This document shows, in pieces, positions 10,820-63,641 of a stretch of 64,000 nucleotides of DNA. The notes under the pieces are model-generated. The model made no database searches. It saw only the letters and a program-made list of their open reading frames with translations, and had not been told where the DNA came from. This DNA comes from an uncultured Alphaproteobacteria bacterium (lineage in GTDB: Bacteria; Pseudomonadota; Alphaproteobacteria; Rhizobiales; Aestuariivirgaceae). The first letter of the stretch is position 1. Every line of letters begins with the position of its first letter. The DNA lies in assembly GCA_963763635.1 (NCBI GenBank), contig CAVXPO010000014.1, positions 4,123 through 68,122 on the forward strand, written 5' to 3'. Both the position numbers and the translations under genes were made by a program.

Positions 10820-12139
10820 TTAGGGCCCTATCAGCAAAGTGACCTGTAATCCCCCCAGGTCTGACCGGCCGTAGCTCAATTCCAGCTCGTAAAGCTCGGC
10901 AATATCCTCAACGATGGCAAGTCCCAGGCCGAAACCCCGATCTTTTTCGTCCAGGCGGCGGCCGCGCTTTCGAATGGCTTGCAATTCGTCGTCGGGAACG
11001 CCTGGCCCATCGTCCTCGATGACAATGCTATTTGCCAAATACCCGATGCGCACCTCGGATTTGGCGTGTTTGCGTGCGTTATCAAGCAGGTTGCCGAGCA
11101 ATTCGAGCAGATCATTGCGCTCCAATGGCACCGTGACGTCGCGCGGCACATTATTGATAAGCAAAAGTTCGGTTCCCTTGGGCAAGCGACGCAATGTTGC
11201 AAATACGGCGTTGACTGTTTCCGCCAGCGGTGTTTTGTCATGCCCCCGGCCGGTTGCCAGTCGCGCCCGCACCAGCCCACGCTCGACATGCAGCCGCATG
11301 TTTTCAACCTGCTCGATGATTTCGCTGCTCTGCTTGTCAAGATGCTTCTTGCCTACGTCGCGCGCGATGGCTGAAAGGATTGTGAGGGGCGTCATCAATC
11401 CATGGGCCAGATCTCCGGCGCGGTGGCGCGCGCGCTCCAACGATTTGTCGCGCAGGTCCAGAACCTCGTTGAACTCTGAAACCAAGGGTTCAACTTCTGT
11501 CGGAAAATTCCCCTCAAGCCGGTTAGCGTGGCTTTGGCCAAGCAGTGCCAATTGGCGCCGCAACGCTTGCAGCGGGCGAAGCCCAATTGCAACCTGCAAC
11601 CACGCCGCCGCAGTGAGAGCAAGCCCGATCAACGAGAGGTACAGCACCAGCTGATTGCGGAAATATGCAATGGGCGACGTAATTTCCTCGTCGTGAGTGC
11701 TGACGATAAGATGCAGGTTAATGTTTTCATTATTATGCTTGATGATTATGCTGCGTTCGGTAGAAACCAGGACTTCATTTTCCGGCCCCAGGTTGGCGCT
11801 GATCGTTGCGGGGTCAGCGTCCCAGAGCGAGCGCGACCGCAACAGGTTGGCCGAGGTTGACGTTCTTGGCCCCAATTGGTCAATGCGCCAGTACTTGCCG
11901 CTAAAGGGCTGGTCAAAACGCGGATCTGCCAAATCGCGAACGATAACGACCTCGCCGGTTTTTGAAATTTCTATCGCACCCAGCAATTGCAGGAGATCGT
12001 TTTCCAACTCCTGCATGACACGGTTGCGTACCTGTTGTTCATATAAGGCAGTGAGTGCGACGCCCGCGAATATCAGCGCAGCGGCGATGGCGATTGCGGC
12101 GGCAATCAGCAATCGCAAACGCAGCGAGCCAGCCATCAT
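10820..12139 (-). CDS. Sensor histidine kinase (QseC/FeuQ-like)
   Basis: Two TM segments, HAMP region, H-box DLAHGLMTPL, N-box GNLLDNARK and G boxes (DDGPG, GFGLGLAI). Confidence 0.92.
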   Translation of the reverse strand: MMAGSLRLRLLIAAAIAIAAALIFAGVALTALYEQQVRNRVMQELENDLLQLLGAIEISKTGEVVIVRDLADPRFDQPFSGKYWRIDQLGPRTSTSANLLRSRSLWDADPATISANLGPENEVLVSTERSIIIKHNNENINLHLIVSTHDEEITSPIAYFRNQLVLYLSLIGLALTAAAWLQVAIGLRPLQALRRQLALLGQSHANRLEGNFPTEVEPLVSEFNEVLDLRDKSLERARHRAGDLAHGLMTPLTILSAIARDVGKKHLDKQSSEIIEQVENMRLHVERGLVRARLATGRGHDKTPLAETVNAVFATLRRLPKGTELLLINNVPRDVTVPLERNDLLELLGNLLDNARKHAKSEVRIGYLANSIVIEDDGPGVPDDELQAIRKRGRRLDEKDRGFGLGLAIVEDIAELYELELSYGRSDLGGLQVTLLIGP

Positions 12140-31103: not shown

Positions 31104-31574
31104 ATGACAGATCTCGCTGATATTATCGATGCCCGGGCTATTTTGCCAAGTGTCAAAGCCCAGGGAAAAAAGCAGTTGCTGCAGGAGCTTTCGCAGGCTT
31201 TCGCCAAGCTTGTCGCGATCGACCACCGCATTATTTTTGAAACGCTCTTCACGCGCGAGAAGCTTGGTTCCACCGGTATCGGGCAGGGCATTGCCATTCC
31301 GCACGGTAAACTTCCCACCATCAACCGCGTCTACGGTCTTTTTGCCCGATTGACCACGCCAATCGCCTACGACTCGCTGGATGGCCAGCCTGTCGATCTC
31401 GTATTTGTGCTGCTCGCGCCAGACCATGCGGGGGCTGATCATTTGAAAGCGCTGGCCCGTATTTCAAGATTGCTGCGGGAAAACGATACGATCGCAAAAC
31501 TGCGCGGCACAGATACGGCTGAAGGTCTCTATTCGATTTTGACCGAACCATCGGCGACAGCTTCGGCGGCTTAG
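31104..31574 (+). CDS. ptsN: PTS IIA-like nitrogen regulatory protein
   Basis: REKLGSTGIGQGIAIPHG and DHLKALARISR. Confidence 0.96.
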   Translation: MTDLADIIDARAILPSVKAQGKKQLLQELSQAFAKLVAIDHRIIFETLFTREKLGSTGIGQGIAIPHGKLPTINRVYGLFARLTTPIAYDSLDGQPVDLVFVLLAPDHAGADHLKALARISRLLRENDTIAKLRGTDTAEGLYSILTEPSATASAA

Positions 31575-31629
31575 TGCAAACTATCGCCACCAACTCATGC
31601 TCGGCAGCACTATCAGCTACGGCGTCGTG
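31571..31629 (-). pseudogene. Decayed copy of the DUF1150 gene 3' end (left island boundary)
   Basis: Hand alignment to 36990-37049 gives about 44/60 identity starting at the stop codon. It reads HDAVADSAAEHELVAI-SLH* versus RQAAAESAEEHELLAISLH*. Confidence 0.7.
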
Positions 31630-31790
31630 GGCTATGACAGCAGCACATCCAAATAACTCCTAGGATAATTAAATGCGCTGGCACCGTCATTCATATGACA
31701 AAAGATGAAACTGAAACTGCAAGACATGATCTGTTGGCTTACCGCCGATTTGATACAATGATGATGGTCTTAACGTTGAAAGAGTTGGTG

Positions 31791-32590
31791 CTACTTACCA
31801 AATGGTAGCCAAGTTTCCTGCGTACGTTTTCCTTGGACAATTTTTCCAACTATTGATTTTTTGGCTATTGAATAGACGAATCCAGCGTAGTGTTTACGCA
31901 TGCCAAGCATGGTCTTCACCTCGGCACAAATAGCTAAATAATGACCGCTTGGTGAGAGTTCAGATGATTGAATTTGATTCCGTGATGTCCCAATTGCCGA
32001 TGACAGCAATGGCTCAATTATGCGCCAACTGGTGGGGTGGTCAGCAGTGCGAAGATGTCCCTTCAGTTGTTCCAAAAGGGGAACCAGCATGGGAGGGTTT
32101 CCACTTGTATAATCAACGTGTATTGAAATGCCGGTCAAAGAGCATGTTCTGGTGTCTTCTGGATGCCAACGTTCACCGCTCCAAAGACAGACAATTCCTT
32201 CTCTTGGGGTGCAATAAGCCCCCGACGCGGCACGAAGTGCGTAGTTACTTATCATACGAGATTCTGAAATACTGCTACGCACAAAGTATTTTTTAAGCGC
32301 CTTTGTTTCGGAAACAGAGCAGGTCTCCAATTCTTTTGGCATGACCATTTGCTCGGTCACTGAGCACCTCTCCAAAACCCCTGGAGCGACTAGAGTCTTG
32401 GTGACGGCGCACCGTTCTCCTTCAGATTCTAAAAAGGTCTTTTTGCTAATAGGGCATTTAACAAATTCAGTTTTGTGACCAAGTACCCCTGAAAAATCCG
32501 AGGCTTGTTGTTCATCTGAACGATACATTTTGCCTGATACTTCACTTTTCGCTAACTCAGTAACAAGCACGTCGGCAGAGGTGAACGCAC
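31791..32590 (-). pseudogene. C-terminal part of the SNF2 helicase gene, separated by the IS
   Basis: Continues the 15-aa [C/S]xx[T/S] repeat register of the helicase end. Confidence 0.8.
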
Positions 32591-32629
32591 TGAACCGCAC
32601 CGGGATTGCCGGAGGCATTTTTGTTTAAG

Positions 32630-33561
32630 TTATGCTGCCATGGCTGGAAAGTCCAACATGTCGTAGTAACGCTGCTCGGCTTCGGCGGGCGGAATGTAGC
32701 CGATGGGTTCAAGCAGGCGGCGGTTGTTGAACCAGTCAACCCATGTGAGAGTTGCCAGTTCGACCTGTTCGAATGACTGCCATGACGAGCGGCGGTGAAT
32801 GACTTCGGCCTTGTAGAGACCATTGATCGTCTCGGCCAACGCATTATCGTAACTGTCACCCACGCTGCCCACTGAGGGTTCAATGCCGGCTTCAAGCAGC
32901 CGGTCGGTGTATTTGATCGAGACATATTGGCTGCCAAAATCAGAGTTGAGGTTCAGCCTTTTTCGATGTCCTCCTTTACTCATATTGGATTTCTTAGGTA
33001 CTTCGTTGAGGAAGTGCCTGCTCCAGTGCATCGAGCACAAAGCTGGCATGGGCAGTACGGCTTGCCTTCCAGCCGACGATGCGCCGGGCAAAGGCATCGA
33101 TGATGAAGGCGACATAAACGATCCCTGACCACGAAGCGACATAGGTGAAGTCCGACAGCCACAGCCGGTTCGGTGGTGACCCATGTAACTGTCGGATGAC
33201 GTGGTCATCCGGAAAAGCACACGTTTTGCCACTGAAAGTACATATTGACTTGTTTGCCGCGGATAACGCCGCGCAAACCCATGCCGCGCATCAACCGTTC
33301 CACCGTGCAGCGGGCAACGTCACGACTCTCGCGCTTGAGCTGGCGCCAGACCTTGCGCGCGCCATAGACCTCGAAGTTCTCAGCGAAGACGCGGGCGATC
33401 TCGGACTTCAAAATCTCATCCCGCTTCGCCCGAGCTGAAAGCTTCTCAGGCTCCGTGCGCTTGGCCACGTGGTCATGATAGGTGGAAGGGGCAATCGGCA
33501 GAACCCTGCAGATCGGCTCGACCCCATGAGACACACGATGATCATCAATGAAGCTGATCAT
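32630..33561 (-). pseudogene. IS3-family transposase OrfB, disrupted
   Basis: HTH_21 part (GVEPICRVL), a frameshift near 33240, LWLSDFTYV..ALEQAL then a stop, and finally SDFGSQYVS..SYDNALAETINGLYKAE in another frame. Confidence 0.9.
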
Positions 33562-33884
33562 TTTTTGAACGGGCGGTCGAGCTCCGCCTGGGCAAAATAT
33601 GCTGACGCCTTGCGCAGGATCTCATTGGCTTGCCGCAGCTCACGGTTCTCGCGTTCAAGCGCCTTCATGCGCTCTGCCATGTCAGTCGTCACACCGGCGC
33701 GTTTGCCGCTGTCGACTTCGACTCGCTTCAGCCAGCCATCCAACGATTGCGCCGTACAACCGATCTTGGCGGCAACCGATGTGATCGCAGCCCATCTCGA
33801 TGTGTGTTCATGCTCATGCTCCAGAACCAGGCGAACCGCCCGCTCCCGGACTTCAGGTGAAAACCTGTTCTTTGTATTGCTCAT
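33558..33884 (-). CDS. IS3-family transposase OrfA
   Basis: [45 protein letters not shown], with an A6 slippery site at the orfA/orfB overlap. Confidence 0.92.
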
Positions 33885-33937
33885 CGTGGCTCCTCTTTCT
33901 CAAGATTAGGAGCCTCCGGCAATCCCGGTGCGGTTCA

Positions 33938-36709
33938 ATCTGGCAAAGCAAGGCGGGCCGAGAAGTCGGATTTTGCAAGTCGATCCTTAATAGCCCAGGA
34001 ACCAGTAATTTCACATTCCGCAAGGCAATCCACAGGAACAATTGAGCCAGTGATTTCACACTTCTCCAAGTCAGGTTCACTGACAATTTCGCCGGTGGAA
34101 GGAAGAATCTGCACCTCACTGTTGTAGATGGCTGGCGATCCAAGTGTGTAAGCTATCCGAACGGACACAATTCTGTGCACAGAGCCATTTAGCCCCACCA
34201 GCGTGGGTTCAAGTCGAGGCGTAAATTCGTCCTCTAAGCGCTTCCGCTTCCGTTCGTCATCCCCGGCAGCGTTTACTTCGTCAACCATTCTCTCGGAATA
34301 GAAACGACAAAATTCCTCTATAGCAGGATCAAGCTTCGCGGCCGATAGTAGCTTGTTGGCATCAATACCTACGTTAGTTGGATTTTCGATTGTCGATTTT
34401 ATATCCTCGGGATTTGAGCCCTTCAAATAATGGTTATGATCGAGCGGATTGCATTGAAGTGGCATGAGACGCTCATAGGCATCATGGGCGACCGTCGCCC
34501 TAATTCTCACTAAGGCAGTTCCATCGAAATGAATGGAAGTGCCTTCTGTATCAGTAGACTTCGCAATACCACCAAAACGCTTTACCCAATTGCGAGCTTG
34601 TATATGTGATGTCACATTTGGCTCGGCATCGAGATCAATAATTCTCTGCAAACTTGAGGCCGTCAGCCTGCTCGCTAAACGATCAAAAGCCGGACTCCCA
34701 GCGCGATAGTCTATGTATTGGACATTGGCAGGTGGCGTAAGATCACCAACAAGAATTACTTCGTGCCTCCGCTCTATCCCACAAAGATATGTTCCGTCAG
34801 GTCGCTTTTGGAGCTGTCCACCCAATGATTGTAATCCCTGAATCGCAAAAGCGGCCGCGTCCATCGAACGTTCAATTGGAGGTAAATGGGGAGCTTTTGG
34901 ACTTGACACTCCAGCGTCGCCCATTGCACCGAGTAGTGAGTTAATATTTTTTTCTTCTTGCTCCAAAGTCGCTTTTGCATTTTCAATGCTTTTGACCTCG
35001 AGTTCTGTTGCTCGCTTAACATCCTTTCCGGCCAGTGAATCCAAAACGAGTTTCCGAATTTTCTCCTCCAAACCACCCACGCCTTCATCTTCATCTCCAA
35101 TATTGGCAGCTTCAAGAAGAGCTTCAATGTCCCCGATAGCGTGGGAAGCCATTTGTAGTTTCTGCATCAGTCTACCGACGATATATTCTTCAAATGTACC
35201 AGCCAAAATAATATTGTAGATGGCGACGGTAGCGTGTTCGGAGCCCAATCGTTGAATTCTGCCAATTCGCTGTTCAACGATCATCGGATTCCATGGCAGG
35301 TCGAAATTAATGAGTATGTTTGCCGCCTGTAAGTTCACACCTTCCGAACCCGCTTCTGTTGAGACAATTACGTGCAGTTCTGGCGGCGATGCTTTAAACT
35401 TTGAAATCGTCTCTTGATTGCGTCCACCGGAGGTTCCGTTGATTGTTCCAACCTTTATGCCCTGGGAGAGTAGGTAGTCCTCAATCGTCGTTTGTGTCTC
35501 TCGACGTCCCGTGAATACAACAAGCCTCCAATCTTTAGGACGATCAGCACGCAATTGCTTAACCAGAGCCGCAAGGCCAGTAAGCTTGGCGCTTGCCCCC
35601 ATCGATTGGACAAGATTGCGCACATCGTTCGCCAACGGCTGAGGAACTGTAGCATTTCGTGCCATATTCTGTAGTTGAGCTGATAGCGCATGAGGACTAC
35701 TGGTAAGCCCCTGCAGGATTGAAATTTGGGCAAGTATGCCAAGTTTTTGAATTGGCCCCTTGATAATTTCAATAAGCCGTAGTTCGTCGGCAGTAGGTTG
35801 AACGCGATGCAGAAGGACACTTCGCTCGGGAAAGCTGAGATTGGCGTCGCCACGCCTAATGCGCGACATATAACTATAGATTATTGATCGAAATTGATCA
35901 CACATCTCTGTGCGGAGCTGGCGAGCATCAGTTTGTTTATCAGCAATATAGTTCCGAGCGAACATACCCGGCGTTCCAAAAGGGTTTTCGTGACCCCGTG
36001 CCACCGTTAGAAGATCAACAAGGGAATAGAGATCCCAAAGTCGATTCTGAATTGGCGTAGCCGTAAGCATCAATACATATTTAAAGAAACGATCGGTTAA
36101 TACTTTTTGAAAAACTCTTGCGACCATTGGAACCGACGCAACCCCGTAAAGATTTCTAAGTTTATGGGCTTCATCCAATATGAGCATTTGATACCGGTCT
36201 TCGGGTATTTGAGAGAGGTATAGACGTGCGGAATTATATGTCGTGATTATTGCACCCCGGTCGCCCTGTGGTTTTGCTTTAATCAAGTCCTTGCCCGTGA
36301 CAACGTCAGCAGAAATATCAAATTTGCTTTCCAATTCCTCTTTCCACTGTGGGCCGAGAATTTTTGGACATACAACCAAAATGTTTGAAAGCCGCCTTCG
36401 TGCCATTAGCTCACTGGCAATCAAACCGGCACTTATTGTCTTGCCTAGACCAACGTCATCAGCAAGCAATGTAACAGGGAGGCGACGACAGAAGGTAATA
36501 AGGTTTGTAGTTTGATGCTCGTATGGCTTGACCAAACTTCGCCATTTTTGCTCAGATTTGAGGTCTTCTGGGCCATCGATAACTATCGGATCGTCAAGTG
36601 ACCATTCCAAAGCGGCCTGATAGAGTGTGTACTCTTCATCAGTTTTTGCACGTCTAAGTGACGCGTATTTCAGCTTTTGTTCGGAAGAATCCCGCAATTT
36701 GTAGTCCAT
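33938..36709 (-). pseudogene. SNF2/RapA-like helicase-ATPase with a long C-terminal extension, interrupted by the IS3 element
   Basis: LADDVGLGKT, LDEAH, LTATPIQN, STEAGSEGVNLQ, and FDLPWNP..EQRIGRIQR. The frame runs into the IS end. The start at 36709 is tentative (the ORF is open to 36853). Confidence 0.9.
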
Positions 36710-36805
36710 ATGAGTACGTATAAGCGTATATGAAGAACTCCCTTTTCCGCAAGGTTTTTGGATTCTTCTAAGTTTGATGTACTCGGCTAATTGGGGGGTA
36801 CGGTG

Positions 36806-36843
36806 ACAATAATCCCGCGCTTGTACAATAATCCCGCGCTTGT
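36806..36843. repeat. Perfect 19-bp tandem duplication
   Basis: ACAATAATCCCGCGCTTGT repeated twice. Confidence 0.9.
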
Positions 36844-36942
36844 GTTGTACCATGGCCGCAGCCCATCAGATTTTAGCGATGTTCCTGTCTCAAGGAACAC
36901 TTGCGCCCACGAAGCGATACTTACAATTTTGGAGGATGCTTA

Positions 36943-36971
36943 AATATAGCCCATCCACCGCACGGTGTCAA
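36943..36971 (-). promoter_or_regulatory. Near-consensus sigma70 promoter for the helicase
   Basis: TTGACA-N17-TATATT on the minus strand. Confidence 0.65.
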
Positions 36972-36989
36972 GCATTAAATTCCTAGACC

Positions 36990-37238
36990 TTAGTGCAGGC
37001 TGATCGCCAGCAATTCATGCTCTTCTGCGCTTTCAGCGGCCGCCTGGCGGGTTCCCGAAATTGAAATCGGCGAACCGTTGGCGTTAAACAGGCAGAACAG
37101 TTTTGCGTCTGGTGAAACCTGGGCTTGCGCCCCCACCATGCGGATAATGTCGCGGCCTTCAACTTCGCGGATGTAGGACAACGCCCCATTGCCAAGCTGG
37201 GCCAGCTCTTCGACACTGACGTGCAATTCCTTGTTCAT
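36990..37238 (-). CDS. DUF1150 family protein
   Basis: LAQLG.G.LSYIREV..LFCLFNANGSPI..HEL..ISLH, directly downstream of the Hsp20 gene. Confidence 0.8.
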   Translation of the reverse strand: MNKELHVSVEELAQLGNGALSYIREVEGRDIIRMVGAQAQVSPDAKLFCLFNANGSPISISGTRQAAAESAEEHELLAISLH

Positions 37239-37243
37239 AAAAC

Positions 37244-37666
37244 TTACTCCTTAATCTCTATACGGCGGATAATGCTGTTTGGTTCCGGCCTTCTGAGATT
37301 GATCATCAAAAGTCCGTTCACAAGCCTGGCATCAACCACATCCATTCCATCAACCAGGACAAAGGCGCGCGCAAAATGGCGGCCCGCAATGCCCCGGTAC
37401 AAAAATTCCTTGCTGCCTTCCTCCTTGGAACGCCCGCGTATGTTCAATTGGTTGTCTTCGACCGTTATTTCAAGGTCCGACCCGGTAAAGCCCGCCACCG
37501 CAATGGTAATCCGCAATATTTCGGGGCCGCCTTCGGCAGGGGTCAAACGCTCGATGTTATAGGGTGGATAGCCTTCGCCGGAGGTTTTGGCGGCCCGCTC
37601 CAGCAGGCGCTCCACATCCTCAAAGCCCAACAACAGCGGCGACGAAAATACCGAAATTCTGCTCAT
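37244..37666 (-). CDS. Small heat-shock protein (Hsp20/IbpA family)
   Basis: SSPLLLGF, YPPYNIE, IAVAGF, FLYRGIAGRHF and NGLL. Confidence 0.95.
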   Translation of the reverse strand: MSRISVFSSPLLLGFEDVERLLERAAKTSGEGYPPYNIERLTPAEGGPEILRITIAVAGFTGSDLEITVEDNQLNIRGRSKEEGSKEFLYRGIAGRHFARAFVLVDGMDVVDARLVNGLLMINLRRPEPNSIIRRIEIKE

Positions 37667-37731: not shown

Positions 37732-37760
37732 ATATGAGAAAGCTAACGGATTGTTTCAAG
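37732..37760 (-). promoter_or_regulatory. RpoH (sigma32)-type promoter for Hsp20-DUF1150
   Basis: CTTGAA-N16-CTCATAT on the minus strand. Confidence 0.65.
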
Positions 37761-37762
37761 GG

Positions 37763-38515
37763 ATGGCGAAGGTGTGGACGGGCAAGACAGTCCTGATCGT
37801 GGGCGGCGCAGGCGGCATGGGCCGGGCGACGGCGGAAGAGTTTGCCAAAGCGGGCGCGAACATCGCAATTGCTGACATCAGCATCGACCGTTTGCCATCG
37901 CGATACTTTGCCATCCAAGGCGACATCACGCGGATTGCCGATTGCGAAGACATGATTGCAAAAACGGTCAGGCGCTTCGGCGGGTTGGATGTTTTGATTA
38001 ACGCGGCAGGCGTGTGGGTTGAAGGAGCAAGCGCTGACATGACCGAAGCCCAGTGGGACCGCACCATTGACATTAATCTCAAAGGCACATTCTTTGCGTG
38101 CCGCTATGCCATTCCCGAACTGGAAAAAACCGAAGGCCAGATCATCAACATCGCATCCGACGCAGGCCTCATGGGAAATGCCGGTGCGGCTATTTATTGC
38201 GCTTCCAAGGGCGGCGTGGTGCTGCTTACCAAGGCGCTGGCATTGGAACTCGCGCCCAAAGGCATTCGTATCAACGCCATATGCCCCTGCGATGTTGAAA
38301 CGCCGATGCTGGAATTCCAGGCGGAAAAATTTGGGCAAGGCAAACCCGAAGAATATTTGGCGAAACTCAAATCCATCTATCCCCAGGGCAAGCGCCAGCG
38401 CTTTGCAAAACCTGCCGAAATCGCGGCCTTTATTTTCGCCATTGCCTCACCAGATTTGGCGCCGATAACCGGTGCAGCCTTGGCCATTGATTTTGGGACA
38501 ACCGCCGGAAGATGA
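37763..38515 (+). CDS. Short-chain dehydrogenase/reductase
   Basis: GGAGGMG, INAAG, and YCASK catalytic motif. Confidence 0.93.
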   Translation: MAKVWTGKTVLIVGGAGGMGRATAEEFAKAGANIAIADISIDRLPSRYFAIQGDITRIADCEDMIAKTVRRFGGLDVLINAAGVWVEGASADMTEAQWDRTIDINLKGTFFACRYAIPELEKTEGQIINIASDAGLMGNAGAAIYCASKGGVVLLTKALALELAPKGIRINAICPCDVETPMLEFQAEKFGQGKPEEYLAKLKSIYPQGKRQRFAKPAEIAAFIFAIASPDLAPITGAALAIDFGTTAGR

Positions 38516-38601
38516 TGGTTCCCCACTTGCAAATGACAGGGATTTAGCGTCAATTGGGCCAAGGCTTGATCAGCCAGTCAAAAAAATCAGGGAGACATTA
38601 T

Positions 38602-59292: not shown

Positions 59293-62897
<3,605 letters not shown>

Positions 62898-63415: not shown

Positions 63416-63641
63416 CCGCAAGGGCATCTCCATGCAGCGCTACAAGGGGCTGGGCGAAATGAACCCCGAGCAGCTGTGGGAAACCACGCTGGATTCCAAC
63501 GTCCGCTCGCTGCTGCGGGTAAAAGTCTCCGAACTCGACGAAGCCGACGACATCTTCACCAAACTCATGGGCGACGTGGTGGAGCCGAGAAGGGATTTCA
63601 TCCGCGAAAACGCGCTGAACGTGGCGAACCTCGACGTCTAA
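63416..63641 (+). pseudogene. Duplicated 3' end of gyrB (last 74 codons plus stop)
   Basis: 226-bp copy of 62672-62897 with 16 mismatches by hand count. It has no start codon of its own that yields a full gene. Confidence 0.95.

Follow-up and report, generated by a model that had tools for sequence, protein, structure and literature searches.

A displaced larA gene end beside ptsN in an uncultured alphaproteobacterium, read as a probable scar of homology-anchored illegitimate recombination

Homology-facilitated illegitimate recombination was reportedly described in 2002 by de Vries and Wackernagel and by Prudhomme and coworkers, and work by Jackson and coworkers from 2009 is said to belong with gene-end displacement at Rhs, CDI, and T6SS loci. 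The larA locus described here, together with similar loci in the same genome, resembles both processes: a conserved gene serves as anchor, a new 3' end arrives with downstream genes, the old end is shifted downstream, arrays accumulate, and no integrase is involved. This kind of scar is already known. However, the C-terminal or sequential displacement at Rhs/CDI/T6SS loci (Kirchberger et al. 2017, PMC5361080) affects polymorphic toxins under diversifying selection, whereas the targets here are housekeeping genes (larA, gyrB, glnA, sdaA, phoB, and ptsN) and the new end is functionally equivalent. In both cases the mechanism is inferred.

A second class is insertion with long target duplication (Nobusato et al. 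2000; Furuta, Abe, and Kobayashi 2010), which was defined on R-M systems (PMC2853133). The larA locus shares with it an insert of 5.4 kb (<20 kb), direct repeats of 47/48 nt (>30 bp) in a setting where repeat length varies, the lack of a responsible mobility gene, a single copy of the repeat at the empty site of relatives, defense-related cargo, and repeats that span the stop codon and so leave the target gene intact. It differs in that the cargo is an SNF2 helicase/DUF2779 fragment instead of R and M genes (R-M genes are found in the sdaA scar) and in that the repeats behave as two alleles, with a pooled dN/dS of ca. 0.16.

Integrative elements at gene ends are the third point of comparison. 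As with e14 or phage 21 in icd and its icdC pseudogene (PMC13626634), the gene continues directly into its replacement end, the displaced C-terminal piece is found at the opposite boundary, most differences are conservative, and homology does not extend past the stop codon. In contrast, e14 has its own integrase and a fixed attachment core and excises, whereas the present locus lacks an integrase and has a truncated fragment as its cargo. CIMEs, the decayed remnants of ICEs and IMEs (PMC7563491), also consist of integrase-less cargo between direct repeats of gene 3' ends and may form tandem arrays. Nevertheless, their att sites are those of known ICE/IME families inserted into the same gene of that taxon, while no such family was found at larA in the genus and the analogous loci have repeats of differing length. 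Of the hallmarks of an integrative element, direct repeats that complete the gene are present, while an integrase gene, an identical core at a fixed and reused crossover, and ends that spare the cargo genes were not found.

The larA end displaced against ptsN

The locus lies in a 64,000-nt stretch of a genome of the Aestuariivirgaceae, hereafter the window, and its features are listed in Table 1. Proteins of the DUF1150 family correspond to LarA, the product of a heat-shock gene, whose C-terminal degron binds Lon, LarA thereby activating this protease (PMC10665427). The C terminus encoded by the intact larA gene is hydrophobic, reads ...AISLH, and ends in His, and by analogy with that study it would represent the Lon-binding degron.

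Table 1. Features of the ptsN-larA region, in positions of the window
Feature	Coordinates	Strand	Evidence or remarks
ptsN (EIIA-Ntr), native convergent neighbor	31104..31574	+	Pfam PF00359, E 1.5e-32
Relic of the larA/DUF1150 3' end	31571..31617	-	Last 15 codons and stop, one base lost; 39/48 identity
Junction stretch from relic to cargo (74 nt), origin unexplained	31618..31691	.	Only weak likeness to larA
DUF2779-family gene, 3' fragment (38 codons and stop), cut cargo edge	31692..31808	+	tblastn
SNF2 helicase pseudogene, C-terminal part	31791..32590	-	78% nt identity to L043 6583-7452; no Pfam domain
IS3-family IS, decayed secondary insertion	32591..33937	-	HTH_Tnp_1, HTH_21, rve in broken frames
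SNF2 helicase pseudogene, N-terminal part	33938..36709	-	SNF2-rel_dom E 1.2e-25, Helicase_C E 9.4e-20
Non-coding, island-specific stretch (280 nt), helicase start to larA stop	36710..36989	.	
Working larA 3' end, probable imported replacement allele	36990..37037	-	Contiguous with intact ORF; clade-unique ELL, TRQ
larA (DUF1150 family), intact 82-aa ORF	36990..37238	-	Pfam PF06620, E 4.6e-20, residues 8-82, full length
hsp20 small heat-shock gene, upstream partner of larA	37244..37666	-	tblastn synteny in relatives, 54-80% identity

Local alignment of the stretch at 31571-31617 with the larA end at 36990-37037 gave 39 identities over 48 columns with a single 1-nt gap. The score of 44 was compared with those of 2,000 dinucleotide shuffles (mean 13.8, SD 2.3, maximum 30), none of which reached it, and the best non-self match of the larA end within the 64-kb window is this relic, located 5.4 kb away with the insert in between. 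The match begins precisely at the larA stop codon, where homology ends, and the TTA of the relic is overlapped by the TAG of ptsN (cTTAg). One base has been lost and the peptide is retained, with ADSAAEHELVAI, a frameshift, and SLH before the stop in the relic versus AESAEEHELLAISLH before the stop in the working end. The earlier note, made from the letters alone, had already described this repeat, its start at the stop codon, its contact with ptsN, the preserved peptide, and the missing base, and all of these features were recovered, the repeat now being backed by the shuffling. Its estimate of about 44 matches in 60 positions was roughly right for the whole, but the solid part is limited to the 48 nt, beyond which similarity falls to 9 of 18 over the following 18 nt (hand count). 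The longest identical runs measure 8, 7, and 8 nt.

That an unrelated sequence resembles the larA end by chance is a negligible prospect, favored by the short length only and refuted by the shuffle test, the score lying 13 SD above the shuffles with 0 of 2,000 reaching it; besides, the match is in register with the stop codon, occupies the exact native position, and encodes the C-terminal peptide of the family. The displaced larA end is thus confirmed as real and as lying at its native position against ptsN.

In this genome, ptsN comes after hpf, as in relatives. A ptsN match was listed for 145 genus genomes, of which 113 carry ptsN and DUF1150 convergently on one contig, with <200 nt between the aligned ends in 88 of the 113, in agreement with the suggestion that ptsN convergent with DUF1150-Hsp20 is a common arrangement. 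The two stop codons are 0 to 6 nt apart in many relatives, and in G061, G155, G044, G166, G052, and others a single larA end is found 5 to 42 nt from the ptsN stop. These are empty sites, the relatives devoid of the island having one larA end and not two, and the ancestral state is shown to be convergent ptsN and larA genes with touching stop codons.

Across the 113 genomes the junction is either tight or occupied by unrelated cargo. Neither a relic of larA nor an integrase, whether as a domain or as a similar ORF, was seen in any of the inserts opened among these genomes (Pfam was run on the inserts of G077 and G149, and the rest were judged from ORF translations). The relic was absent from the 335- to 4,700-nt inserts of G012, G014, G017, G002, G077, G154, G074, G168, G141, and G156, and also from the 3' side of ptsN in seven genomes with ptsN and larA on separate contigs, for which the alignment covered only the sequence downstream of ptsN. 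A second larA insertion with a repeat was not found in the genus. The 18.9-kb gap at the junction of G133 was considered as an island and rejected, since it consists of a housekeeping gene block and thus reflects a rearrangement.

A comparison of both larA ends with 20 clade orthologues gave no answer as to which of them is native, likeness to relatives being uninformative: the relic was nearest to G077 (40/47 nucleotides at the end of its orthologue) and the working end somewhat nearer to G021, and neither was an outlier. The peptide of the relic is identical to the C terminus of the G147 orthologue. The relic carries clade-typical residues, while the working end has clade-unique ones (ELL, TRQ). 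A relic almost undecayed in coding terms, together with a working end containing residues unique in the clade, suggests that they represent different alleles of the clade. On the two sides of the island, identity to G021 is alike (81% and 78%), and no long imported tract was visible in flank identity against G021, G077, G061, G044, or G012.

Cargo between the two larA ends

The island has a GC content of 0.43 to 0.49, versus 0.53 to 0.58 in the flanks, and is AT-richer as had been noted. Its description as holding only a helicase and an IS was nearly complete; missing from it were the 38 terminal codons of a DUF2779 gene (31692-31808) and a non-coding stretch of 280 nt. The true start of the helicase is the ATG at 36709, and homology to L043, the locus of its closest homologue, starts at 36700. 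The N-terminal part shows 90% identity to P0001 (1235 aa) and 85% to P0002. This helicase family is present in only 3 of 156 genus genomes, the other two members being 53 to 54% identical and located elsewhere, and none of the relatives has this helicase at the ptsN-larA site. As the closest relatives of the helicase occupy defense islands of unrelated metagenomes, a foreign origin of the island is supported. PADLOC returned only generic SNF2-core matches with partial coverage (DrmD, BrxHI, and ZorD), for which reason the helicase was assigned to no named defense system.

In L043, an intact 500-aa DUF2779 gene is convergent to a helicase 90% identical to that of the island. The DUF2779 fragment is 64% identical to this gene (tblastn, E 7e-12), and nucleotide homology to it begins sharply at 31692. 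The cargo was therefore cut within the DUF2779 gene, so that it is a fragment and the imported DNA ends at an arbitrary point. The stretch at 31618-31691 has no homology to the L043 DUF2779 gene and none to larA beyond weak similarity, and 28 nt at 31665-31692 occur once more elsewhere in the genome; any illegitimate joint must lie in this stretch. At the other side, 36710-36989 contains a 19-nt tandem repeat (36806-36843) and matches neither the close helicase loci nor any of the relatives whose sequences were aligned over the region.

The IS3 copy comprises orfA (HTH) and orfB (DDE rve) domains and 26-bp terminal inverted repeats, with no target duplication seen, which in the IS3 family would measure 3 to 4 bp. 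Its ends do not coincide with those of the island, and since it sits inside the helicase, it is a secondary insertion. Compared with two other genomic copies, which are 2 nt apart from each other, it has 34 private differences, among them two frameshifting 1-nt insertions that break orfB, and the helicase has lost ca. 145 to 148 nt at the insertion site. Three later events are shown, namely, the insertion of the IS3 into the helicase with removal of ca. 147 nt, the decay of the IS3 copy, and the loss of one base from the relic. The cargo as it stands is a dead fragment of a foreign defense island.

Across 31571-37049, ORFs and Pfam revealed no recombinase except the IS3 transposase fragments within the helicase, which agrees with the earlier statement that the island has no integrase. 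That statement had been accompanied by a proposal that an element integrated long ago into the gene end and that its recombinase was lost or supplied in trans. In its fuller form, a site-specific element of the e14/icd type, whose attachment site duplicated the larA end, would have integrated at the larA 3' end, the integrase and most genes then being deleted (a CIME-like remnant) or the integrase acting in trans. The geometry agrees with such an element: as in icd/icdC around e14 (PMC13626634), the gene runs straight into its replacement end, the old end marks the other boundary, and no homology continues beyond the stop codon. Integrase-less remnants with two att sites are common in streptococci (PMC7563491), the short identical runs (8, 7, and 8 nt) could be used as a core, and the 85% helicase relative P0002 adjoins a large serine recombinase in L044. 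Against this, no integrase or serine recombinase was found within or beside the island, and the far edge cuts the DUF2779 gene, although a deletion within a once-complete element could also leave a cut gene. The opened junction inserts of the 113 convergent genomes had neither integrase domains or integrase-like ORFs nor the relic, which was also missing downstream of ptsN in the seven genomes with separate contigs. Moreover, none of the ca. 160 to 164 helicase loci examined (metagenomes and genomes), nor the two closest proteins, had DUF1150 or ptsN as a neighbor.

Paired gene ends elsewhere in the genome

The same bracket architecture was found in this genome at gyrB (three copies), sdaA, phoB, glnA, and a monooxygenase gene, with a further candidate scar at a moaB-like end (gene named from the translation only), and in another species (G149) at ptsN. 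Beyond larA, there are at least five such scars in the genome. No integrase-like or serine-recombinase-like ORF was seen between the repeats of these other loci, and the sole recombinase-type domain, detected by Pfam on selected ORFs, belonged to an IS-type DDE transposase (rve) within the cargo at phoB. Within arrays the repeat length varies, with 226 versus 186 nt at gyrB and 299 versus 105 or 30 nt at sdaA, which speaks against a fixed crossover site. An origin by site-specific integration would require as many lost integrases as there are analogous scars (six or seven genes in this genome) and has to accommodate the differing repeat lengths. Given also the cut cargo and the missing recombinase, we consider the integrative element proposed in the earlier note quite unlikely at larA.

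The differences between the paired ends were pooled over 8 pairs, giving 44 synonymous and 23 non-synonymous changes (dN/dS of ca. 0.16). The non-synonymous share of 34% compares with 61% expected for a neutrally decaying copy formed in situ (P = 7e-6 for the pooled set), while the larA pair alone, with 5 synonymous and 4 non-synonymous changes, was not significant. Taken from the sequences of all pairs, this argues for paired ends that are probably different alleles and not the duplication of one target, a case that is weak for larA on its own. Duplication in situ followed by neutral decay was rejected on the pooled codon test.

These data bear on long target duplication, in which foreign DNA would enter larA at a double-strand break, staggered or processed, within its final ca. 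50 nt and repair synthesis would duplicate the target; the copies, identical at birth, would diverge later, aided by allelic replacement of the working gene via homologous recombination with relatives. Such a process has been put forward to explain R-M insertions that lack mobility genes and have long direct repeats of variable length, in many cases across a stop codon (PMC2853133). The sdaA locus here has an R-M cassette of this kind, and the synonymous excess is not significant for larA alone. Nevertheless, we regard it as unlikely, since the pooled codon differences reject neutral decay in situ (P = 7e-6) and clade-typical residues in the relic with unusual ones in the selected copy are the opposite of what decay would produce. 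In addition, the ends diverge by 19% in 48 nt versus ca. 2.5% private divergence in the later-arriving IS copy, and at sdaA the gene end travels between species together with the cassette.

The cassette at this last locus comprises Dcm, Vsr, and a GIY-YIG gene. G000 and G074 share it, along with 297 nt of the gene end, at 93% identity, compared with 79% for the whole sdaA genes, and the junction between cargo and relic is common to both genomes; in G074, the unit has been displaced further by a newer insert. The higher identity of the unit and its being pushed back in G074 indicate that units of gene end plus cargo move between relatives and stack. The common junction at 93% identity also indicates that finished scars pass between species as units. 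By the same token, the whole larA-island-relic-ptsN block could have been built in another lineage and imported by double homologous recombination in the conserved flanks, with nothing unusual having happened in this one. We find this very unlikely for larA. The sdaA precedent favors it, but such an import only relocates the making of the scar to a different genome; neither the larA scar nor this helicase was seen at the junction of any other sampled genome, and the flank identities to relatives show no imported tract.

A proposed homology-anchored scar and its implications

We favor, with a probability of roughly 0.55, the reading of the locus as a scar of homology-anchored illegitimate recombination with DNA of a related species rather than an island made by an integrase. 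A linear piece of ca. 4.2 kb, derived from another, related species in the clade, would have entered the cell, carrying the donor larA end and the downstream part of a defense island, that is, the 280 nt, the SNF2 helicase gene, and the tail of the convergent DUF2779 gene, within which the fragment would have happened to end. Its homologous end would have paired with the resident larA/hsp20 region, hsp20 being a possible homologous anchor, and crossed over, while the non-homologous end would have been joined illegitimately within the last ca. 50 to 70 nt of the resident larA. After that, larA would end in the imported allele with the C-terminal degron preserved, and the last 15 resident codons would be stranded against ptsN.

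The locus has the feature expected of 3'-end displacement, a resident end kept downstream of the imported DNA at its native position next to ptsN. It is supported that the working larA end behaves as a replacement allele rather than a copy made in situ, and the view that a replacement end sits on the gene with the old end at the far boundary is among the parts of the earlier interpretation that have held. Counted against the favored reading are the flank identities, which lack a long imported tract, the 74 nt at the joint that are unexplained, and the absence of a Ku gene from the genome, on which ground Ku-dependent end joining was rejected. The donor arrangement (larA, 280 nt, helicase, and full DUF2779) was not found in the 156 genus genomes, ca. 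160 helicase loci, or the protein database, and therefore the homologous crossover and a microhomology at the joint remain proposals.

More tentatively, and with appreciable doubt, the genus might have a recombinase-independent route of gene addition behind core genes, at their 3' ends. Fragments from relatives would bring a replacement end together with the genes that follow it, displace the resident end, and accumulate as arrays. They may be of gene-transfer-agent size; the cargos measure 0.5 to 6 kb, and the genome has an RcGTA-type GTA_TIM gene. If true, at least six scars in a single 3.4-Mb genome would mean that genes, defense genes among them, are gained in this way to a major and as yet unquantified extent. 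An insertion in the degron-coding end of larA would kill the gene unless a replacement end came along, and this locus would illustrate how that can happen without an integrase. Islands bracketed by gene ends are usually read as footprints of integrases, and homology-anchored capture of DNA from a relative would give the same signature, affecting how the output of island predictors and att-site callers is read. With their variable repeats, synonymous-biased differences, arrays, and a cassette found across species, these loci would provide a natural set of scars of additive recombination in alphaproteobacteria.

The displaced larA end and the DNA behind it

The DNA directly abutting the ptsN stop proved to be a second copy of the end of the DUF1150 gene (larA). 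Positions 31571-31617 matched the last 48 nt of that gene (36990-37037) with 39 identities and one 1-nt gap, and this was the best non-self match to the larA end in the whole window. The local score was 44, while 2000 dinucleotide shuffles gave a mean of 13.8 (sd 2.3) and a maximum of 30, so the duplicated end proposed in the earlier note is real. As that note had also described, the match begins at the stop codon, in register with it, and keeps the peptide: the relic, whose TTA overlaps the ptsN TAG, reads ADSAAEHELVAI, a frameshift, and then SLH*, and the working gene ends in AESAEEHELLAISLH*. By hand count, the similarity drops to about half upstream of the 48 nt. The island between the two ends is AT-richer than its surroundings, again as claimed (GC of 0.43-0.49 versus 0.53-0.58 outside).

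Features of the larA island and of repeat-bounded loci elsewhere (C, contig; L, fetched locus; source genome unless stated)
Feature	Position	Strand	Size or repeat	Remarks
ptsN	31104-31574			leftmost feature
Relic of larA end	31571-31617			after ptsN
Stretch between relic and DUF2779 fragment			74 nt	matched to no source
DUF2779-family 3' fragment	31692-31808	+	last 38 codons + stop	E 7e-12 vs intact gene of locus L043
SNF2 helicase gene	31791-36709	-		SNF2-rel_dom + Helicase_C domains
IS3-family element	32591-33937		26-bp inverted repeats	splits helicase
Non-coding DNA between helicase and larA stop			280 nt
larA stop	36990			right edge of island
gyrB scar, 3 end copies	62672-62897; 63416-63641; C14:69623-69803 (L264, past window end)		226 nt (copy 2, 93%); about 186 nt (copy 3, 89%, with indels)	SnoaL gene, then about 1.9 kb
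sdaA scar	C8:55440-59277 (L263)		105 nt	Vsr, GIY-YIG gene, C5 methylase (restriction-modification cassette)
phoB-type regulator scar	C25:68539-73757		55 nt	5.1 kb: RTX gene, IS-type DDE transposase (rve) gene
Flavin monooxygenase scar	C9:18327-24463		62 nt	6-kb ABC transporter + amidohydrolase
glnA scar	C28:178716-182103		45 nt + terminator	3.2-kb efflux system
moaB-like end (candidate)	C21:57665-58604		157 nt	small secreted protein
ptsN scar of genome G149	2044-2249; 5416-5621 of L082 (C9:229000-236500)		206 nt	3.2 kb, AT-rich: HTH gene + nitroreductase-like gene

The cargo is foreign, since relatives of the helicase are scattered over several phyla and rare in the genus. The family (proteins of about 1230 aa) shows a nearly uniform 55-60% identity in Patescibacteria, Nitrospirota, Acidobacteriota, Bradyrhizobium, and others, and it occurs in 3 of 156 genus genomes, the other two copies being 53-54% identical and located elsewhere. 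Only two helicases were much closer: P0001 (90% identity), from a metagenomic defence island with GmrSD, a convergent 500-aa DUF2779 gene, and SIR2, and P0002 (85%), whose neighbours include a large serine recombinase and a ThiF/E2/JAB system. Neither DUF1150 nor ptsN lay beside the helicase in any of 164 loci. DUF2779 was directly beside it in 23 of them, in several orientations, and likewise at the loci of P0001 and P0002, which suggests that the helicase and the adjoining DUF2779 (PD-(D/E)XK-like) gene form a two-gene module. PADLOC returned generic SNF2-core hits only. Homology to the intact DUF2779 gene starts abruptly at 31692; the cargo is only part of a larger island, with the cut lying within DUF2779. 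At the P0002 locus, the helicase was called as two overlapping ORFs (978 and 266 aa), split near the position of the IS in the window.

The IS3 copy is a secondary arrival and not the maker of the island. It lies without a target duplication where the helicase lacks about 145-148 nt, and it carries 34 private differences, two of them frameshifting single-base insertions, whereas only 2 nt separate two further full-length copies of the genome from one another; the helicase has therefore long been dead. A perfect 19-nt tandem duplication (ACAATAATCCCGCGCTTGT twice, 36806-36843) lies within the 280 nt of non-coding DNA that precede the helicase start. At the left joint, 28 nt (31665-31692, ATAATTAAATGCGCTGGCACCGTCATTC) that resemble a sigma-54 -24/-12 box recur at 26 of 28 positions in an intergenic site on another contig (C16:171079-171106, L002), there succeeded by a second TGGCACCGCAATTC. 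On the other flank, a short-chain dehydrogenase gene beside hsp20 (37751-38515) is missing in G044, where homology resumes at 38522; G021 aligns without a break across this region, and the difference in G044 is a small indel beside the locus.

The ptsN-larA junction among relatives

The ancestral order is hpf-ptsN convergent with larA-hsp20. Matches to ptsN were listed for 145 genomes of the genus, and 113 of these had ptsN and larA convergent on one contig, in agreement with the arrangement that had been called common. The gap between aligned ends was under 60 nt in 61 of the 113, 60-200 nt in 27, 200-1000 nt in 17, 1-10 kb in 6 (the source genome having the largest), and over 10 kb in 2, and in many genomes the two stops are 0-6 nt apart. 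Between its two convergent genes, this junction generally collects insertions. The larger gaps held unrelated sequences, including RTX protein genes (G077), a regulator with a dehydrogenase-like gene (G154), small genes (G074, G168, G141, and G156), and in G012 a 335-nt MITE-like element whose termini are long inverted repeats (L005 reverse complement, 1163-1497), placed exactly between both stops. Palindromic repeats related to this element are numerous throughout the genus; the units after each gyrB end are one instance. The gap in G133 holds a housekeeping block and was rejected as an island, being a rearrangement. No relic of the larA end, integrase domain, or integrase-like ORF turned up in the inserts opened (Pfam for G077 and G149, ORF translations for the others), nor was there a relic beside ptsN in seven genomes with the two genes on different contigs. 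Among the genus genomes examined, the larA relic is unique to the source genome.

The C terminus of the G147 orthologue has the same peptide as the relic, and the nucleotides of the relic agree with the end in G077 at 40 of 47 positions, versus 38 of 47 for its own working end; the former value at least equals the 82% identity of the remaining larA gene between the two genomes. The working end matched relatives at 34-39 of 48 positions and has residues found nowhere else in the clade (ELL for ELV/ELI, TRQ for TRE). In a sliding comparison neither end stood out, and the flanks on both sides of the island were identical to G021 to a similar degree. We conclude that these are probably two alleles from the same clade and, from its position and lack of decay, that the relic is likely the resident end, a direction unproven by sequence alone.

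Scars of the same form at other genes

A whole-genome scan for local direct repeats showed that the source genome holds at least six such scars and the moaB-like candidate (identified by eye from translation, the annotated host ORF not being recovered), and related scars occur in two other species. In these structures the gene with its first end copy is followed by cargo, a second end copy, and the native downstream region, and in most of them the stop codon, give or take a few bases, is where the homology ends. Among the ORFs examined between the repeats, none was an integrase or serine recombinase. At gyrB, the working end and a palindrome are followed by the SnoaL gene, copy 2 with its palindrome, about 1.9 kb, and copy 3; thirteen close relatives matched had a single gyrB end, and three had SnoaL on a contig other than that of gyrB. 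In G149, the same ptsN-larA junction shows the mirror image, a repeated ptsN end whose three differences are all synonymous by eye, with homology ending at the stop and no integrase in the cargo.

Neutral decay of an in-situ duplicate, with selection on the other copy, would make 61% of the differences non-synonymous. Eight pooled repeat pairs (two of them, at gyrB, not independent) gave 44 synonymous and 23 non-synonymous differences over about 212 and 673 sites (dN/dS about 0.16), a non-synonymous share of 34% (P = 7e-6), and a neutrally decaying duplicate was rejected; larA alone (5 versus 4) was not significant. From this synonymous excess, the paired ends appear to be mostly different functional alleles. 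One end of each pair would then have been imported with the cargo.

At sdaA, G074 (L271, C91:9000-18500) carries an array: its own gene is followed by 3.3 kb of different cargo and then by a fragment of 299 nt from the 3' end of sdaA, behind which come the Vsr/GIY-YIG/methylase cassette seen in the source genome, a relic of 30 nt, and the next gene. Since fragment and cassette are 93% identical between the two genomes, versus 79% for the whole sdaA genes, and the cargo/relic junction is common to both, gene ends together with their cargo pass as units from one species to a related one via recombination in the conserved gene, and later arrivals push earlier units back.

Mechanism and relation to known systems

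The earlier note had read the larA island as an old integrase-type integration, with the recombinase lost or supplied in trans. Its replacement end with a displaced old end stands, but integration by a recombinase is not supported. Integrase-based look-alikes exist (e14 in icd with icdC, PMC13626634; CIME remnants, PMC7563491). However, the locus has no integrase and no reused fixed core, and, unlike in an integrative element, the island ends cut a gene. Repeat lengths also vary within arrays (299 versus 105 or 30 nt at sdaA, 226 versus 186 nt at gyrB), and therefore do not mark the fixed crossover point of a site-specific recombinase.

All observations fit illegitimate recombination anchored by homology, or a one-ended repair of a related type. 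A linear piece of DNA from a relative, presumably a clade member, would pair via the conserved gene, with the crossover in larA/hsp20, and its non-homologous far end would be attached at some arbitrary point within the terminal part of the resident gene, here probably within 31618-31691; the donor allele would complete the gene and leave the resident tail stranded. Because the touching stops of ptsN and larA leave no intergenic room, a joint that is tolerated must fall in the gene end replaced by the donor, and the homology would end at the stop codon because the DNA beyond it differs in the donor. DUF1150 is LarA, a heat-shock activator of Lon, and the degron that activation requires consists of its last five residues (PMC10665427), which explains why only an intact replacement of the larA end will do. 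The searches gave no donor genome for the island and no Ku gene in the source genome. Delivery by a gene transfer agent is conceivable, given an RcGTA-type GTA_TIM gene and a heterologous insert of about 4.1 kb once corrected for the IS and the deletion. This gene (C2:10325-11222, L262; RcGTA g15-like, E 3e-127) is broken into two frames overlapping at 11040-11074, owing either to a frameshift or to misassembly of the gene transfer agent cluster.

The larA locus is thus probably a recombinational scar of an already known kind. The closest class is "insertion with long target duplication," described for restriction-modification systems, with long variable direct repeats, often lying across start or stop sites, and no mobility genes, mostly in competent species and by an unknown mechanism (PMC2853133); the larA locus shares its structure except for the restriction-modification cargo. 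For the C-terminal or sequential displacement of Rhs/CDI/T6SS genes, homology-facilitated illegitimate recombination has been proposed (PMC5361080). The wider interest lies in the recurrence of these scars in one genome and in the evidence for xenologous alleles at their paired ends.
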